Shown here one piece after another: positions 5,792 through 39,567 of a stretch of 40,617 bases of DNA. The stretch lies in NCBI GenBank assembly GCA_016187205.1, contig JACPKE010000023.1:1-40617 (forward strand), read 5' to 3'. The translations under genes were made by a program, and so were the position numbers. A model generated the notes under the pieces. It was given only the letters and a program-made list of their open reading frames with translations. It ran no database searches and was not told where the DNA came from. This DNA is from Candidatus Brennerbacteria bacterium (GTDB taxonomy: Bacteria; Patescibacteriota; Minisyncoccia; UBA6257; JACPKE01). The number at the start of each line of letters is the position of its first letter. The stretch's first letter is position 1.

Positions 5792-8363
5792 CTTTAATCT
5801 GCCCTTTAATTATTTTATCGGCTAAATTATCCAGAATGACTTTTTGAATAAGCCGTTTAATCGGTCTGGCGCCATACTCCACGCTAAAACCGTTAACGGC
5901 GATGTATTTTTTTACTTCCGGATTTATTTTGACCTTAATCTGGCGCAAAGCAAGTTTTTTTTCAATTTCGGCAAACTGAATATCAGCTATCTCTTCAACG
6001 TCAACCGGCCGCAAAGAATTAAAAATAAGGGTTTCATCCAAACGGTTTAAAAATTCCGGCTTGAAGGTTTGGCGCAAAGATTCCATAATTTTCGCGCGAA
6101 AATTATCTTCCTTGCCCTTCAGCCCGTCATCCGATTCCGATGAAAAACCCAGATTGGACATCTCGCGAAAATAACCGCTACCGACATTTGAAGTCATAAT
6201 AATAATCGTATTTTTAAAATTAACTGTCTTGCCCTTGCTGTCGGTCAAACGGCCGTTATCCAAAATCTGAAGCAAAAGATTAAAAACTTCCGGATGCGCC
6301 TTTTCTATTTCATCAAACAAAATCAAGCTGTACGGCCGGTGGCGAACCGCGTCAGTCAAACGGCCGCCTTCCTCATAACCGACATAACCAGGCGGAGCTC
6401 CGATTAGACGGGCGGTTGAATGACGTTCCATATATTCCGACATATCAATGCGAAGCAAAGATTTTTCGTCATTAAACATAAATTCCGAGAGCGCCCGCGC
6501 CAATTCAGTCTTGCCGACGCCGGTAGACCCTAAAAACATAAAAGAAGCAATTGGTCTTGATTCATCGCCAAGTCCGGCGCGGCTCCGGCGCAAAGCCCTG
6601 GCTACAGCTTCAATAGCTTCCTTTTGACCAACAACTCTTTTAGATAAAGTTTCTTCAATGCGATTCAGCTTATTAATTTCCGATTCCAACATTCTGGTTA
6701 CCGGAATACCTGTCCAGCGCGAAACCACTTCGGCAATATCTTCCTCGTCAACATATTCCTTGATAAATTTGTCGTGCCGGTTATTCTTGGAAAAATATTT
6801 TTTTTCAAAAGATTCAAATTCCTTTTCGGCGGCCGGCAGTTCACCGTAAAGAATCTGCGCCACTTTTTCAAGATTGCCGTCTCTTTCGGCAACTTCCGCG
6901 ATCCGACGCAAATCTTCGGTCCGGCGCCGCAAAGTATTAAGATTTTCAAAAGCGATCTTTTCCGCATGCCAGCGCGCTGACAAAAGATCGTTCGCGCTTT
7001 TAAATCCAACAAGTTCTTTTTCTATTTCTTTAAGACGGGATTTGGCAACTTTGCTGTTTTCTTTTGACAAGGCTGATTTTTCTATTTCAAGACGGGTAAT
7101 TTCGCGGCGTTTGACATCAAGTTCTTTTGGAAGGCTGTCGCTGTCAAGCCTGCGGCTGGCCGCGGCTTCATCAATAAGGTCAACTGCTTTATCGGGCAAA
7201 AAACGGTCACTGATATACCTGGCGGAAAGATTAACCGCCGCCACAATCGCCTCGTCGCTTACCTTTACGCCATGATGGGTTTCATATTTTTCCTTAAGGC
7301 CGCGCAAAATAGCGATGCTGTCTTCTATAGCCGGCTCATCAACATTAATCGGCTGCAACCGGCGTTCAAGCGCCGGGTCTTTTTCAATATGGCGCTGATA
7401 TTCTTTAATCGTAGTGGCGCCGATGGCATGTAATTCTCCCCTGGCAAGAGACGGCTTTAAAAGATTGGATGCGTCAACAGCGCCTTCGGCTGCGCCAGCC
7501 CCGACAATCATATGAATTTCATCTATAAAAAGTATCATCCTGCCGCTGGCGTTTTTAATTTCTTTCAGAAACGCTTTTAAGCGGTCTTCAAATTCGCCGC
7601 GGAATTTTGTTCCGGCAATCAAAGAACCAAGGTCAAGCATAATAATTTCCTTATTTTTAAGAGGTTCCGGCACTTCCCCGCTGATAATCCTTTGCGCCAG
7701 GCCTTCAACAATGGCTGTCTTGCCAACGCCCGGCTCGCCCACCAAAACCGGATTATTTTTGGTTCTGCGGCTCAAAACCTGAATAACCCTCCGCAATTCT
7801 TCCTCGCGGCCGATAACCGGATCAAGTTTTCCTTCCCGCGCCTGTTCGGTCAAATTAATCGCGTACTTGTCCAAAACCTGAAACTTAGATTCCGGCATTT
7901 CATCGGTAATTCTTGCGGAGCCGCGTAACTGGGATAAAATCCGCATCACAATTTCCCGACGCACCCCGAAATTATTCAAAATAGTCTGGGCCGAAGAAGG
8001 CACATCAAATAAAGCCATCAACAAATGCTCGCAAGAAACAAACTCATCTTTTTGCTGAAGAGCCACTTTAGCGGCCTGGTCCAAAATTTTCATCAGTTCC
8101 TGCGACAAATAAAGCTGCCCGACCGTTGAGGTGGAAAATAATTTCGGAAGGCGGGCAAGTTCCTGTTCCAGTTCCTGTTCCAAAGCCGACAAATTTACAT
8201 TAGCGCGCACCAAAAGAGGCCTTACAAGGGTCTGGTCCTCGCCTATTAAAGCGCGCAAAAGATGCAAAGCTTTTAATTCGCCATGAGATTCTTTGGCGGC
8301 TAAATCCTGCGCGTTCTGCAGAGCTTCCTGAGCTTTAATTGTAAAACGATGAAAGTTAGGCAT
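5721..8363 (-). CDS. clpB: ATP-dependent chaperone ClpB
   Basis: Two AAA+ modules (GEPGVGKT and GSTGVGKT Walker A), a Clp N domain, a long coiled-coil middle domain; 880 aa. Confidence 0.97.
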
Positions 8364-21819: not shown

Positions 21820-23289
21820 TTAGCTTATAGAGTCAATGACTTTTTTAAGTTCGTGTAATTTATTTTTAAAAATATCTTTATAAACCGCCTCAACATTCAA
21901 ACGAAGCAATGGTTCGGTGTTAGATAAACGAAGATTGAACCACCAGCTTTTGTCAAAGCTTCCGCCGGCAATGCCATTTTTAAACTCCATTGTCAGTCCG
22001 TCCAAACGAGAAATACGAGCGGCGGACTTGCGGTATTTTTTTTCTATTGCTTTTAAAATCAACTCCTTATTTTGAATTTTAAAATTCATTTCTCCGGAAT
22101 GATGATAAACCGGCAATAAATCAATAAAATCGGATAAGTAATAAGGCAAGCGAGAAACCGCGCTGATAATTTGAAGAGCGGCGGTAATGCCGGAATCAAA
22201 ATAAAATCCGTTCGGGCCATCGCCAGAACGAGATAAGCCATCGATTTGTCCCGCCTTGGCGGTGGCTTGTCCCGCCTTGGCGGTGGCAAAAAAATAATAA
22301 TGGCCCGACTGCTCGCAACCAAGGGGAATTTTCTTTTGTTTCATTAATTTTTTTATAAAAAAATGTCCAACCTTGCTTTCAACCAGTTGAAAATCCAAAT
22401 TTGTAACCGCGTTTTTTTTAACCAGCCAACCGGTTCTAACATCAGCAATAACTTTTAACTCTCGCTTTAAATTATTAATTTTGAAATACCAGATAAGCAG
22501 ATAAGCGACAACATCCGAATCTACAACCCGTCCTTTATTATCAATAAAAAAAGCTCGGTCTCCGTCAGCGTCAAAAATCGCCCCCAAATCAGCTTTATTT
22601 TGAATCACGGCTTTTTGGAGCTGTTTTAAAGCGCCGGCGGCGGTAGGATTAGGGCCATGAGCGGAGAAATTGCCATCAGGCCGGCTGTTAATTAAAACAA
22701 CATTCAACTTTAAACTTTTAACCTTTAACTTATTCAAGACCAACCCGGTTGTTCCATTAGAACAATCAAAAACCACTTTCAGAGGTTTTTTGATATTAAT
22801 AAAACTATTTAAAAATTTAACGTATAATTGAAAATAATTCTGGGACATCTCAACTTATCTTTTAAGCAATTTTAATATTTGGACGCCGCTTATCGGAACG
22901 GCGTTTCTGCCGACGATTTTCAAACCATTATATTCTTTCGGATTATGCGAAGCGGTAATCATTATGCCGCCAGCCGCTTTAAAATGATTCACCAAAAAAT
23001 AAAACATCGGCGTGGTCATAACCCCGCCTGGAATAGTTTTTAGTTTATAGTTTTTTCCGCCAGAGGCGGATCCGCCTTCGGCGGAAGTTTCTAGCGATTT
23101 TAACACTGCTTTATAAAGTCGAGGCGAGCTTAAACGGGCATCCCGCGCAATTAAAACTTTCCCATGCTGAAATATTTTTACAATTCCCGCAGCGATAAAC
23201 CCAACTGTTTTCTCGTTGATTTCTTCTGAATACCGTCCGCGAATATCATAAGCTTTAAAGATGCCAATATTTTTAATTTCTTTAAACAT
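21820..23289 (-). pseudogene. phosphoglucomutase/phosphomannomutase-family gene split by an in-frame TAA into ORFs 22855..23289 and 21820..22848
   Basis: The N-terminal ORF has the active-site TASHNP. The C-terminal ORF has the metal loop FDADGDR and sugar loop GCEQSGH. Both ORFs are in the same frame, and the junction reads KR-TAA-VE-M. Confidence 0.7.
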
Positions 23290-33490: not shown

Positions 33491-33865
33491 TTAATTATTT
33501 TCAATAATTACCGATTTTTTTACTTTAATATCACTTAAAATTTTAACTATCTGCTTTTTAAAGACCGGTAAGTCGTCTTGAATGGTTTTCCATAATATTT
33601 CTTCATCAATGCCAAAATATTCATGAATTACTTTATTCCTCATGCTTTTAATTTCGTTCCAGGCCACATTTGAATTTTTGGCTTTTATTCCTTCGGGAAT
33701 ATTTTTTACCGCTTCACCAATAACTGAAAGATTCCTAATAACCGCATCAATTATTTGTTCATTTTTGGAAAATTTTTCAAAATTAACGCCACGCGTATAT
33801 TTCTCTATTTTTCTGATAGAATCTTTAATATCTTCCAAATAAAGTTTTATTCCTCTTTTAGACAT
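33491..33865 (-). CDS. hepT: HepT-type (DUF86) RNase toxin
   Basis: R-x4-H-x-Y motif as RNKVIHEY; 124 aa; overlaps the upstream MNT gene by 8 nt. Confidence 0.85.
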   Translation of the reverse strand: MSKRGIKLYLEDIKDSIRKIEKYTRGVNFEKFSKNEQIIDAVIRNLSVIGEAVKNIPEGIKAKNSNVAWNEIKSMRNKVIHEYFGIDEEILWKTIQDDLPVFKKQIVKILSDIKVKKSVIIENN

Positions 33866-34148
33866 ATTGCACTTCTTTAAGAATTTCTTTTTTAACTGCT
33901 GATTTGATAGCTTTCTTGGAAATTAAATCCACTTTTTTCCGTAAAACGCGGCTCAATAAATTTTCCAACCGAATAAAATCAAAAAAGCCGATGGGGATTT
34001 CAAATTCCACCAGAATATCCAAATCGCTTCCTATCTTCTGCTCGCCGCGAACAAAAGAACCGAAAATCCCGATTTTTTTAACATGATATTTTGCTTTAAT
34101 CAAAGGAAGTTGTTCATGAATTTTTTCCCGTATTTTTTCATTTTCCAT
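33858..34148 (-). CDS. mntA: MNT-type nucleotidyltransferase antitoxin (MntA)
   Basis: GIFGSFVRGE...SDLDILV (GSxxRG...DxD) minimal NTase motif; 96 aa. Confidence 0.85.
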   Translation of the reverse strand: MENEKIREKIHEQLPLIKAKYHVKKIGIFGSFVRGEQKIGSDLDILVEFEIPIGFFDFIRLENLLSRVLRKKVDLISKKAIKSAVKKEILKEVQYV

Positions 34149-34356: not shown

Positions 34357-35595
34357 TTAATAACGTAAAGGAAATTTTTTTGCCAATAAGCTGATTTTTT
34401 TCGCCAATACCGCAACTTGTTCTTTCTGCAAAACAGCGAAATAAACCAGTTGCGCTATATCAACCATTTCACGCTCTTTCATTCCCCGGCTTGTCACCGA
34501 AGGAGTTCCCAAACGAAGCCCGCTCGGCTTAAAAGGCGATTTATCTTCAGGCACAACATTGCGATTGGCTAAAATACCGATAGTTTCCAACCGTTTTTCC
34601 GCGGTCATTCCGTCAACCCCAACGTTTTTTAAATCAATCACCATTAAATGATTATCGGTTCCGCCTGTTATTAAATCAAAACCCCGCTCAATTAAAGCTC
34701 TTGACAACGATTGGCTATTTTTAATTATTTGTTCTTGATATTTTTTAAATTCCGGCTTTAAAGCCTCATTAAACATTCCCGCGATAGCCGCGATAGTATG
34801 GTTATGAGGCCCGCCCTGCATTCCGGGAAAAACAGCCTTATCAATCAATTCAGCCAGTTCTTTTTTGCAAAAAATAATCGCTCCCCTTGGACCGCGCAAA
34901 GTCTTATGAGTCGTGGCCATTACCGCGTCGCTGTAAGAAAACGGCGATTGCTGAAGCCCGGCCGCCACCAAACCGGCAATATGAGAAATATCAGCAATAT
35001 GGTAAGCCTGGACTTTTTTAGCGATTATCCCTATTTTTTTAAAATCAACTTTACGCGGATAAGAAGTGAAGCCGGAAATAATTATTCTTGGCTTGTGCTT
35101 TTTTGCCAAACGTTCAATTTCACGGTAATTAATCAGCCCGGTCGCCTGATTAATCCCGTATTGAATGCTTTTATAGATCCGGCCGGAAAAATTAACATTA
35201 TGGCCGTGAGTCAAATGCCCGCCGCCGAAAAGCGACATTCCCATCAAAACTTCGCCGGGCTTCATTAAAGCCGAATAAATTTCAAGATTAGCCGGAGAAC
35301 CGGAATACGGCTGAACATTAACATGCCATTTTTTAGGGTTCAATTTAAAAGCTTTAAGCGCCCGCTCTTTGGCCAGATTTTCTATAGCGTCATAATACTT
35401 ATTGCCAGGATAATAACGTTTCCCAGGATAACCTTCGGAGTATTTATTTGCGAGTGGCGAGCCAAGCGCTTCAAGAAGCTGCGGAGAAATAATATTTTCC
35501 GAAGGAATCAAATCAATAGTTTCCTGCTGACGTTTTATTTCAGCCGTTATTAAACGGCAAAGCAAAGGGTCAGATTTTTTTAAAAACTTAAACAT
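34357..35595 (-). CDS. glyA: serine hydroxymethyltransferase
   Basis: PLP-lysine context TTHKTLRGPRGA, the GGHLTHGH block; 412 aa. Confidence 0.96.
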   Translation of the reverse strand: MFKFLKKSDPLLCRLITAEIKRQQETIDLIPSENIISPQLLEALGSPLANKYSEGYPGKRYYPGNKYYDAIENLAKERALKAFKLNPKKWHVNVQPYSGSPANLEIYSALMKPGEVLMGMSLFGGGHLTHGHNVNFSGRIYKSIQYGINQATGLINYREIERLAKKHKPRIIISGFTSYPRKVDFKKIGIIAKKVQAYHIADISHIAGLVAAGLQQSPFSYSDAVMATTHKTLRGPRGAIIFCKKELAELIDKAVFPGMQGGPHNHTIAAIAGMFNEALKPEFKKYQEQIIKNSQSLSRALIERGFDLITGGTDNHLMVIDLKNVGVDGMTAEKRLETIGILANRNVVPEDKSPFKPSGLRLGTPSVTSRGMKEREMVDIAQLVYFAVLQKEQVAVLAKKISLLAKKFPLRY

Positions 35596-35596
35596 A

Positions 35597-35731
35597 CCCA
35601 GTAGTAGAAACTCGATTGATTAATTATAATTCGTTGACCCTTGGTTAATCATTGTTTATTGAACCAGCAATGTTCATTCTTTAAACTCTCTCCGACTTTG
35701 TCGGAGGAATCGAGTTTTCACTACTGGGCAT
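35597..35731 (-). promoter_or_regulatory. structured leader element copy A, abutting the glyA start codon
   Basis: About 21-nt termini are inverted complements (CCCAGTAGTAGAAACTCGATT / AATCGAGTTTTCACTACTGGG), there is an internal hairpin CTCCGAC-AAA-GTCGGAG, and a second copy lies at 38939-39074. No SD sits between the element and the ATG. Confidence 0.6.
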
Positions 35732-35988
35732 ATTTTAACAAATACGAAACAACGAATTTCATCAAAATATTTCCAATCAATCCGAATTTATTCGGATATA
35801 TTCGTAGATTCGGATTCATTTGTAGATTTGCATCGGTCATATTTAAAATAACAAAAAAGCTCCTGTTAACCAAGAGCTTAAAAAAAATTCAATATCAATG
35901 CCAAATTTTTGACCATAAACAAAATAATTTATATAGTTATTTAAGATATTTAAAATTAAAAAGTGTCGCAAAAATAAGGAGGGCCGCC

Positions 35989-37578: not shown

Positions 37579-38937
37579 TTAATTATAAAACAACGACGGT
37601 GTAAGCGGTTTTAAAACAGCCGAAAATTGGCGCAAATGTTTCGGCGCTTGAACAATTGTAAAGCCGCGCAGATTTTTTCTTTGTTTCCAAATTCTCAAAC
37701 CGGCTTCCAGAACGGATTCTATATGGGATTTTGTATAAACTCGGCGGGGAATTGCCAAACGCACCAGTTCTAAAGGCTCGTTCATTCCCCTGGTCAGACT
37801 GCCGGCCATCTCCGAACACCTCATTCCGGCTTCGGCATAAAAAGCTACAATTAAAGTTTGGGCCGGAAAATTATTTTTTTTAACATGCGCCAAGGTTTTC
37901 GCCGCGTCAATATAAACCGCGTGCCCGCCCGGAGGATTAACCAATGAAAAACCGATTTTTGCCAACCCGCTGTGAAGATAAGCTACCTGCGAAACGCGAT
38001 AATCCAAATAATCTTCATGGGCTGTTTCTTCAAAACCCCGAATCGCCGATTCCATGGTTTTGCCGGACATGCCGCCGGAAGTCGGATAACCTTCGTAAAA
38101 ATTAGCCAGCCTTCTTAAATTAGCCGCGATACTTTTATTATTGGTTGACAAAAATCCGCCGGCATCCGAAAGTCCGTCTTTTTTCGCGCTCATATAAACC
38201 ACATCGGCCAAACCGCAAAGTTTTTTAATGATCTCCTGAACACTGAAACGTTCAAATCCTTTTTCCAATTTCTTTATAAAAAAACCATTTTCCGATATGC
38301 GGCAAGCATCAAGAATCAACGGAATATTGCGGCTAGCCGCCAATTTGGAAGCCGCAAAAACATTTTCGTAAGAAACCGGCTGGCCGCCGTTGGTATTATT
38401 TGTCAAAGTAAGCACAATGGCTTTAACAGATGAATTATTTTGCCGTAAAAATTTTTCGGCTTTTTTCAAATCAAGATTCCCTTTAAATTTTTTCCAGGAA
38501 GAAAGTTCTCCCTGAACTAAAAAATCAAGGCAATTGGCGCCGGCTGATTCAAAATTGCCGCGCGTAGTGTCGTAAAGAGTATTGGATAAAATAAAATCTC
38601 CGGGCGAGCTTACCAGAACTTCAGCCAGCAGTTTTTCCGCGCCTCTTGCCTGATGAACCGGAATAATTTCTTTTTTACCGCTTAATTTTTGAATCGCTTT
38701 TTTAAAACGGAGCCAGCTTTCTGATTCACTGTAAGCCTCGTCGCCCATTCCGGAAGCCGCCAGCTGATATTTGCTTAAAGCGCCGGTGCCGGAATCAGTT
38801 AAAAAATCAAACGCGATTTTATCTCCGGGCACTTTAAAAATATTATAACCGGCCTCGGCTAAAACTTTCAGCCGCTGCCTGCGGGTTAAAAAAACTATCG
38901 GTTCAATGGTTTTAATCCTAAACGGTTCTGTGAACAT
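37579..38937 (-). CDS. tryptophanase / tyrosine phenol-lyase family (beta-eliminating lyase), PLP-dependent
   Basis: N-terminal FRIKTIEPI, DFLTDSGTGA, PLP-lysine context SAKKDG; 452 aa. Confidence 0.85.
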   Translation of the reverse strand: MFTEPFRIKTIEPIVFLTRRQRLKVLAEAGYNIFKVPGDKIAFDFLTDSGTGALSKYQLAASGMGDEAYSESESWLRFKKAIQKLSGKKEIIPVHQARGAEKLLAEVLVSSPGDFILSNTLYDTTRGNFESAGANCLDFLVQGELSSWKKFKGNLDLKKAEKFLRQNNSSVKAIVLTLTNNTNGGQPVSYENVFAASKLAASRNIPLILDACRISENGFFIKKLEKGFERFSVQEIIKKLCGLADVVYMSAKKDGLSDAGGFLSTNNKSIAANLRRLANFYEGYPTSGGMSGKTMESAIRGFEETAHEDYLDYRVSQVAYLHSGLAKIGFSLVNPPGGHAVYIDAAKTLAHVKKNNFPAQTLIVAFYAEAGMRCSEMAGSLTRGMNEPLELVRLAIPRRVYTKSHIESVLEAGLRIWKQRKNLRGFTIVQAPKHLRQFSAVLKPLTPSLFYN

Positions 38938-38938
38938 T

Positions 38939-39074
38939 CCCAGTAGTAGAAACTCGATAATTTTAATTATTATTCATCAACCTTTGATTAATCATTTTTT
39001 ATTAAACCAGAAGTGTTTTTTCTTTAAACTCTCTCCGACTTTGTCGGAGGAATCAAGTTTTCACTACTGGACAT
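38939..39074 (-). promoter_or_regulatory. structured leader element copy B, abutting the start codon of the tryptophanase-like gene
   Basis: It has the same termini and the same internal CTCCGAC-AAA-GTCGGAG hairpin as copy A, while the interior has diverged. Confidence 0.6.
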
Positions 39075-39094
39075 TATTTAATTAAACCAAAATA

Positions 39095-39116: not shown

Positions 39117-39285
39117 ATTATTCACCTGCAAGAATACCCGCCCGCTTGCGGGCGGGATGAATTGCGGTATGTGAATAATAAACCCCCCGCTTTTTGATCA
39201 AAAAGCGGGGGTGAATAACCGCAAGACCACAGAGCGGTTTTGGATACCGCACCACTCTGTGGTGCGGTTATTCATTTTTATAATC

Positions 39286-39567
39286 TCAAATGCGTTTCTT
39301 GATTTGAGCATAAACCGTTGCTCGATGTTGAATAATAAGAATTTTTACTATATTTTTATCAATTTTATAAATAATGCGATAATCACCTGCGCGAAATTTG
39401 CGGTATCCTTTAAGCGAACGCCTCAACGGCTTGCCATATAAATCAGGTCGAACCATCAAACGGCTTTCAATCAAAAGACGAACTCTTTCTTTCCATTCAC
39501 CGGAAAGCTTGGGAATATCATCGCGAACAACACGATAATGATAGACAACATCAAACATTAGTCCCAA
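39286..39567 (-). CDS. type II toxin, RelE/StbE family
   Basis: KGYRKFRAGDYRIIYKIDKNIVKILIIQHRATVY matches the RelE core; 93 aa; overlaps the upstream antitoxin by 10 nt. Confidence 0.85.
   Translation of the reverse strand: MGLMFDVVYHYRVVRDDIPKLSGEWKERVRLLIESRLMVRPDLYGKPLRRSLKGYRKFRAGDYRIIYKIDKNIVKILIIQHRATVYAQIKKRI

Follow-up and report, generated by a model that had tools for sequence, protein, structure and literature searches.

The window analysed here, a 40,617-nt stretch of Candidatus Brennerbacteria DNA (contig JACPKE010000023.1 of assembly GCA_016187205.1), carries two copies of a short repeat, each immediately ahead of a gene on the minus strand. Copy A (35597..35728, minus strand; 132 nt from terminus to terminus) abuts the start codon of glyA, the serine hydroxymethyltransferase gene (34357..35595, minus strand; Pfam SHMT, E 2e-157), whose product is a 100% match to a protein from a Candidatus Brennerbacteria MAG. 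Copy B (38939..39071, minus strand; 133 nt) abuts the start codon of a tryptophanase-like beta-eliminating lyase gene (37579..38937, minus strand; Pfam Beta_elim_lyase, E 1e-51). Read on the minus strand, the 3' end of copy A is followed by a single T and then the glyA ATG (35595-35593), and that of copy B by a single A and then the lyase ATG (38937-38935). The two copies are 88% identical, and the likeness ends at their flanks. Both the terminal 20-mer and a 20-mer from the internal hairpin are confined to copies A and B in the window, where shuffled sequences lead one to expect none. All this agrees with the first-pass annotation, which had placed two minus-strand copies with common termini and a common hairpin 1 nt before these two ATGs. 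The boundaries that it drew, however, took in the duplicated ATG upstream of each copy, which is flanking target DNA and not part of the element.

Copy A has perfect 20-nt arms, with the terminal inverted repeats CCCAGTAGTGAAAACTCGAT at its 5' end (35709..35728, minus strand) and ATCGAGTTTCTACTACTGGG at its 3' end (35597..35616, minus strand). It lies between two direct repeats of TATG on the same strand; the upstream one (35729..35732) holds an orphaned ATG that opens a 16-codon mini-ORF, and the downstream one (35593..35596) includes the glyA start codon. Copy B is similarly flanked by AATG, at 39072..39075 upstream and at 38935..38938 downstream (minus strand), where the repeat includes the lyase start codon. 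Its 5' arm departs from the consensus at two positions (T1 and T17), both of which become U.G wobbles in the sense strand. As RNA, the termini pair over 20 bp, with a G.U and an A.C in the middle, much as the earlier annotation had proposed, and the predicted folds of the two copies reach -54.5 kcal/mol (z -7.9) and -38.9 kcal/mol (z -4.2).

Between the arms, both copies carry a subterminal hairpin, P2, at 35690..35706 in copy A (CTCCGAC-AAA-GTCGGAG) and at 39033..39049 in copy B (both minus strand). Copy A also contains an internal pseudo-3'-arm, CATTGCTGG (35664..35672, minus strand), which as RNA can pair with the outer half of the 5' arm in a fold of the nascent transcript; the energy of this duplex has z = -4.0 relative to shuffled sequences, and the pseudo-arm is a subfamily feature. 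Closer to the gene lies AAGGGTC (35636..35642, minus strand), the copy A version of a family motif, AAAGGTC, that occurs about 20-25 nt ahead of the 3' arm in right-aligned copies and in the alignment. A further hairpin, suggested earlier by an apparent compensatory change between the copies (GAAC/GUUC against AAAC/GUUU), is not kept in the alignment of related copies. Rfam searches at gathering and permissive thresholds returned nothing above noise for the window copies, and a scan for sigma-70 promoters and intrinsic terminators made no call within them and found no -35 element.

The neighbourhood of the two copies has features of its own. GC-rich terminator-like hairpins, both on the minus strand, lie directly ahead of the promoter region of the lyase gene (39137-39211) and of that of glyA (35857-35879); weak sub-threshold Rfam hits (anti-hemB and RT-7) fall on the hairpin at 39137-39211 and look like noise. 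A toxin-antitoxin pair, consisting of a HepT-like RNase and an MNT-type nucleotidyltransferase (33491-34148, minus strand), adjoins the glyA locus, and a ParE-like toxin ORF (39286-39567, minus strand) adjoins the lyase locus. Elsewhere in the window, at 21820-23289 (minus strand), a 342-aa ORF with phosphoglucomutase domains II-IV only has a separate 144-aa ORF directly upstream, and together these may represent a split or frameshifted PGM/PMM gene.

The closest relatives of this glyA (81-84% identical protein, same gene order) have no element ahead of the gene. At locus L071, the lyase site is likewise intact and unoccupied, with ttttaattaaataATG equal to the 5' flank in the window; where the window reads tttaattaaatAATG, then the element, then AATGttcaca, L071 has the empty counterpart ttttaattaaataATGcttccc. 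The lyase site of L068, on the other hand, is occupied. The L068 contig starts inside the element (L068:1-35) with a foldback-like junction (TCTACTACTCGTCGAGTTTCTACTACTGGG), and the hairpin of the element may break or distort short-read assemblies at such sites. Perfect 4-bp direct repeats flank 66 of the 102 copies that we list below, and some copies have repeats of 5 bp. The duplicated word is TATG in 42 listed copies, with AATG, CATG and ATGA among the others, and the target consensus outside start codons is the palindromic G-TNNA-C, in which TNNA is the central word. The empty sites in relatives, together with the direct repeats, demonstrate insertion with target duplication and thereby identify the family as a MITE. 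Several of the usual traits are present: small non-coding size, terminal inverted repeats, target-site duplication, dispersed copies and empty sites. The element thus derives from a DNA transposon, is bounded by 20-bp terminal inverted repeats and codes for no protein.

Scanning one genome per GTDB species for the terminal 19-mer yielded 67 stretches, nearly all from Patescibacteria MAGs; the hosts were Jorgensenbacteria, Wolfebacteria, Brennerbacteria and unclassified Patescibacteria. These GTDB genomes contained 39 paired copies, and one MAG held about 25 copies of the element. The same 19-mer recovered at least 120 stretches from metagenomes, and after arm pairing the Patescibacteria genomes and metagenomes gave at least 102 distinct copies. 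Single copies measure 59-150 bp, longer items being nested or tandem copies. The termini are near-invariant (CCCAGTAGTGAAAACTCGAT...ATCGAGTTTCTACTACTGGG, with 20-nt arms), which is partly a matter of ascertainment, as the copy search demanded one perfect arm. An interior-only nhmmer profile aimed at copies with decayed termini returned only known or duplicate copies, all with intact termini. We found no published description of the repeat family in the literature; it is widespread in Patescibacteria and apparently undescribed.

Across 97 of the listed copies, 1706 of 1746 arm positions are Watson-Crick paired, and the variants that do occur in the arms are compensatory (CCGG...CCGG; CTTGAT/ATCAAG; and GCCCGCGAT/ATCGCGGGT in L022). 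In a tandem array at L022:1950-2320, the inner arm halves and the internal pseudo-arm of the first member have changed together (GCCCGCGAT / ATCGCGGGG / ATCGCGGGT). The same locus has, at L022:3900-3935, a terminator-like hairpin (ACCCCGTAGTAAAAC-TTT-TACTACGGGG, then TTTTT) that resembles the outer halves of the arms. P2 is a GC-rich hairpin that begins 2-4 nt past the 5' arm, and covariation, which the first-pass annotation had proposed to test for the element, is strong in it: all seven of its pairs (7/7) show double changes, and 93% of its cells pair, compared with 74% in shuffles and 29-42% when slid. This covarying hairpin occurs at the 5' end only.

The interiors have otherwise diverged widely, even inside one genome; only the termini and one short hairpin are kept. 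Nor does the element have coding capacity. The 16-codon ORF at the 5' end reads as earlier described in both window copies, but it is not a conserved peptide: its length varies from 6 to 52 codons across the family, which rules out a conserved leader peptide. An interior mini-ORF (MI[IN][KQ]R...) is missing from many copies and fails as a conserved feature, being restricted to one subfamily; elsewhere its ATG is lost and the AAAGGTC motif stays. The internal pseudo-3'-arm able to pair with the 5' arm in nascent RNA is significant in about 37% of the listed copies, both window copies included, and we therefore rejected it as a general RNA switch required by the whole family.

Some properties of the element differ between its strands. 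The sense strand of the interior is purine-rich, with more A than T in 79 of 95 listed copies and 80 runs of five or more A against 32 such runs of T, and its last eight positions are about 90% A/T. In the terminal helix, G.U outnumbers A.C by 22 to 10, and P2 is more stable in the sense direction in 55 of 77 copies (55:22). Folding of whole elements did not differ between sense and antisense (p = 0.41), and we regard these strand-asymmetry signals for a sense-strand RNA role as weak. The orthologous pair L038/L138 shows no difference in the native promoter flank or in the final ~35 nt of the element, against ~65% identity in the interior, a pattern that points to in-place constraint on the gene-proximal part.

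The position of the element relative to genes is systematic. In 62 of the 102 listed copies a same-strand ORF starts 0-2 nt past the 3' end, the distance being exactly 1 nt in 52 of them. In these start-codon copies the ATG lies within the target duplication, and in 59 listed copies the gap between helix and AUG is 0-1 nt. Most surviving copies duplicate NATG, usually TATG, leaving one ATG upstream of the element while the gene keeps its own ATG 0-1 nt after the 3' end. Start-codon siting thus accounts for about 60% of the listed copies, and the orientation bias is near-absolute: a clear mirrored arrangement occurs in one case among the listed copies (L036, with CATA). The non-ATG copies in tandem gene contexts are also co-oriented, by 10:1, and some copies lie 9-57 nt upstream of other genes. 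Since a near-symmetric element could enter TATG/CATA or G-TNNA-C either way round, the orientation bias presumably stems from selection on expression of the downstream gene; probably only the sense orientation would leave that gene expressible. Tandem arrays whose members share one TATG (L022, L081, L107 and L176/L181) suggest a real site preference as well. The first-pass annotation had offered, as one option, a MITE whose insertion site happens to be the start codon. The MITE part holds, given the duplications, the empty sites and the many copies, but happenstance does not fit the ~60% of copies at start codons, and the random orientations and contexts of a plain MITE are not what we see. 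We put the probability that the element is mobile and MITE-like, and that it is biased both towards start codons and in orientation, at roughly 0.85.

What lies behind these start codons is diverse. The 53 proteins encoded directly after ATG-adjacent copies contain 77 Pfam families, each in at most two proteins, and at least 50 unrelated genes, many of them essential, are preceded by the element. Their products include ribosomal proteins L19, S2 and L14, DnaK, GatB, CTP synthase, RuvB, sigma-70, GreA, MreB, Obg and a penicillin-binding protein. Searching related genomes for the termini and tabulating the genes downstream, as had been suggested, thus revealed a recurrent association with gene starts and no single pathway. 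Given this diversity, the pairing of two PLP enzymes in the window is incidental.

These target genes look leaderless from their upstream sequences. By a strict rule, a TATAAT-like hexamer occurs in 17 of 52 upstream flanks, with its peak 6-9 nt ahead of the first ATG and with TGnTATAAT forms included, and only 4 of the 52 contain a motif resembling a Shine-Dalgarno (SD) sequence. With a -10-like box at this distance, the duplicated TATG spans about -1 to +3 of the probable transcription start. A TAAAAT/TATAAT box 6-9 nt ahead of the ATG is also seen in several window genes, for example those starting at 8363, 10167 and 33435 (minus strand). As had been noted, there is no SD between the element and the ATG in the window copies; the accompanying claim that most other genes there have strong SDs did not survive, as an SD-like motif precedes only 6 of the 30 long window ORFs (at their mechanical starts). 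Its absence ahead of glyA and the lyase gene is therefore not exceptional, and widespread leaderless or SD-less initiation in this Brennerbacteria genome is suggested.

How the element moves is less clear than that it does. No transposase was found in the window. A search of 194 loci (1.3 Mb) for arm pairs 0.3-5 kb apart brought up neither an autonomous copy nor a transposase bounded by these termini, and viral contigs and plasmid and phage collections yielded no autonomous parent. The CCC...GGG ends, the 4-5-bp repeats and the TNNA consensus fit the IS1380/piggyBac type (CC(C) termini with 4-5-bp A/T-rich duplications), which gives a lead rather than a test. A transposase would then act in trans, and the ends and duplications make a DDE enzyme of the IS1380/piggyBac kind the probable candidate.

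Two observations sit awkwardly here. A ~20-nt GC palindrome (CCTGCCTGCCGGCAGGCAGG-like) is nested in one arm only of several copies: in the 5' arm at L019:6576-6600, L043:1319-1345 and L047, and in the 3' arm in L048 and L042. Its position coincides exactly with the G.U/A.C mismatch in the middle of the terminal helix, and since L019 and L043 are separate loci of one genome, palindrome-bearing copies seem to have moved. A palindrome in one arm alone is hard to reconcile with a transposase that recognises the two arms in double-stranded form. The other concerns targets: subfamilies within one genome favour different sites (ATG-type versus TTGA), which selection explains only loosely. In the MAG containing L041, a second interior type prefers TTGA sites and the hairpin-bearing type prefers ATG sites. 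L041 itself has a 323-codon ORF between two co-oriented copies (L041:715-1938), with TTGA at 4/4 junctions, and the upstream ORF has its stop codon in the duplication, as the TGA of that word.

Movement of folded single-stranded DNA by a Y1 (HUH) transposase that recognises the hairpin and a short target word, as in REP/REPIN-RAYT or IS200/IS605 elements, would accommodate much of this: the extra hairpin tolerated in one arm, the compensatory arm variants, the strand-specific and subfamily-specific choice of target, the GTAG in both arms and the absence of a terminus-flanked autonomous copy from the 194 loci. To our knowledge, however, these families make no target duplications, whereas the empty sites prove variable, target-derived duplications of 4-5 bp; the arms are not themselves palindromes, and the conserved hairpin is at one end only. 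We consider this origin very unlikely. The duplications led us to reject the REPIN, IS200/IS605 and integron readings alike, and the last of these is scarcely credible. Recombination sites of the attC kind, marking the boundaries of gene cassettes, would match the size range (59-150 bp), the conserved paired ends with a central mismatch and variable middle, the co-orientation with genes and the single ORF between two copies in L041; but RYYYAAC/GTTRRRY core sites are absent, direct repeats flank the copies, the neighbours are core housekeeping genes in conserved synteny, and there are only two copies in 40 kb. The data also refute the suggestion with which the first-pass annotation began, to which we give equally little credence: a riboswitch or cis-regulatory leader responding to glycine, serine, aromatic amino acids, PLP or folate, through which glyA and the lyase gene would be regulated together. 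Both window copies precede PLP enzymes and fold stably, yet the family has unrelated genes downstream and no conserved interior core, close relatives have the same genes without the element, Rfam offers no match, and the target duplications mark inserted DNA.

With the element taken as a MITE, its effect on the gene behind it is much less certain than its identity, and our expectation is split among read-through, processing and internal-promoter models. In the sense orientation, transcription from the native promoter may run on through the purine-rich, U-tract-poor element, which would then serve as a new leader. Translation that begins at the orphaned 5' AUG, or pairing of the internal pseudo-arm, may keep the 5' arm off the 3' arm and thereby unmask the AUG of the gene; another possibility is a cut in the terminal helix close to its base. 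In its strict form, this last idea, which is akin to one offered by the first-pass annotation, makes the RNA hairpin a processing signal: a double-strand-specific or structure-specific RNase would cut at or near the base of the terminal helix and so regenerate an mRNA with its 5' end at the AUG or 1 nt ahead of it, and only insertions abutting the start codons of leaderless genes would be tolerated. Of the three models, cutting close to the base of the helix gives the best account of the exact abutment (a gap of 0-1 nt in those 59 copies), and the leaderless look of the targets, the tolerance of insertion by essential genes and the conserved native promoter flank in L038/L138 are consistent with it. 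RNase III normally cuts inside a helix rather than at its base, however; the helix is nearly alike in both orientations, so cutting alone leaves the orientation bias unexplained; and for the copies that lie 9-57 nt upstream of other genes, no such mechanism is called for. In favour of processing, Patescibacteria have kept RNase III (PMC12641178). On balance, we think processing of this kind is possible but doubtful.

We are about as doubtful of an outward-facing promoter at the 3' end of the same mobile element, which would produce a ~15-nt leader consisting of the 3' arm alone, with no hairpin in the mRNA. In 13 of 54 ATG-type copies, against 1 of 25 others, a match of at least 5/6 to TATAAT stops exactly 1 nt short of the 3' arm; the A/T-rich final interior positions and the in situ conservation of the last ~35 nt in L038/L138 are in keeping with this, and the directionality of a promoter would explain the orientation bias. 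On the other side, the window copies have no -35 element and drew no promoter call, the hexamer is limited to about one copy in four and may be shared by descent, the exact abutment on the ATG is left unexplained, and the native promoter flank is conserved too in L038/L138. A bolder idea joins targeting to processing: the element would home to the transcription and translation start of leaderless genes, where it would have evolved to do no harm, and folding of its transcript would allow the ~130 nt of insert to be excised or looped out, restoring a translatable 5' AUG. We hold this to be decidedly unlikely. If true, the element would be a mobile, protein-free 'leader intron' able to sit ahead of essential genes, and not only transposition but also selection on RNA processing, acting at the level of the host, would maintain its near-invariant termini.

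Among known repeats, the Correia elements (NEMIS) of Neisseria are comparable, being likewise ~100-150-bp MITEs with long terminal inverted repeats that lie next to genes and form hairpins in the shared transcripts. RNase III cuts the Correia transcripts, and promoters are provided by some of the copies. However, Correia elements duplicate TA rather than 4-5 bp, their terminal sequences are unrelated, and they are not known to be concentrated on start codons or almost uniformly co-oriented. ERIC/IRU and other enterobacterial MITE-like repeats are also imperfect palindromes transcribed with their neighbours, and their orientation affects the fate of the mRNA; ERIC differs in sequence, in hosts and in lacking start-codon precision, and its mobility is barely documented, whereas both empty and filled sites are seen here. 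REPINs (RAYT-moved REP doublets) share the short intergenic hairpins, the GTAG word, ends more conserved than the middle and the lack of an internal transposase, but they make no target duplication and each REP is palindromic, unlike the arms of this family, which are not self-complementary. IS200/IS605-derived elements have subterminal hairpins at both ends and no duplication, in contrast to the 5'-only hairpin and varying duplications described above. The IS1380 and piggyBac-type DDE transposons, as a possible parent, have similar CC(C) termini and 4-5-bp A/T-rich duplications, and our TNNA consensus resembles the TTAA of piggyBac; neither the start-codon bias nor the orientation bias is known as a feature of those families. 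By analogy only, the retrotransposon Ty3 also lands within a nucleotide or two of transcription starts, in its case those of RNA polymerase III, but Ty3 is eukaryotic and guided by transcription factors, and the pattern here may come partly from selection. The element is a MITE, of a known kind, and its start-codon precision and orientation bias set the family apart from Correia, ERIC and REPIN-type repeats.

Recognising this removes a false riboswitch lead. It also matters for annotation, as these elements create spurious short ORFs and can mislead start-codon calls. Their behaviour is unusual among bacterial MITEs: about 60% of the listed copies duplicate a start codon, the orientation is almost fixed, and ribosomal protein and chaperone genes lie behind them. 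It follows from this pattern that leaderless or SD-less genes are numerous in these organisms, and that 130 nt of hairpin-forming RNA is tolerated at gene starts. The family therefore provides a handle on transcription starts and translation initiation in an uncultivated phylum, as well as on how a transposon can target, or survive at, start sites.
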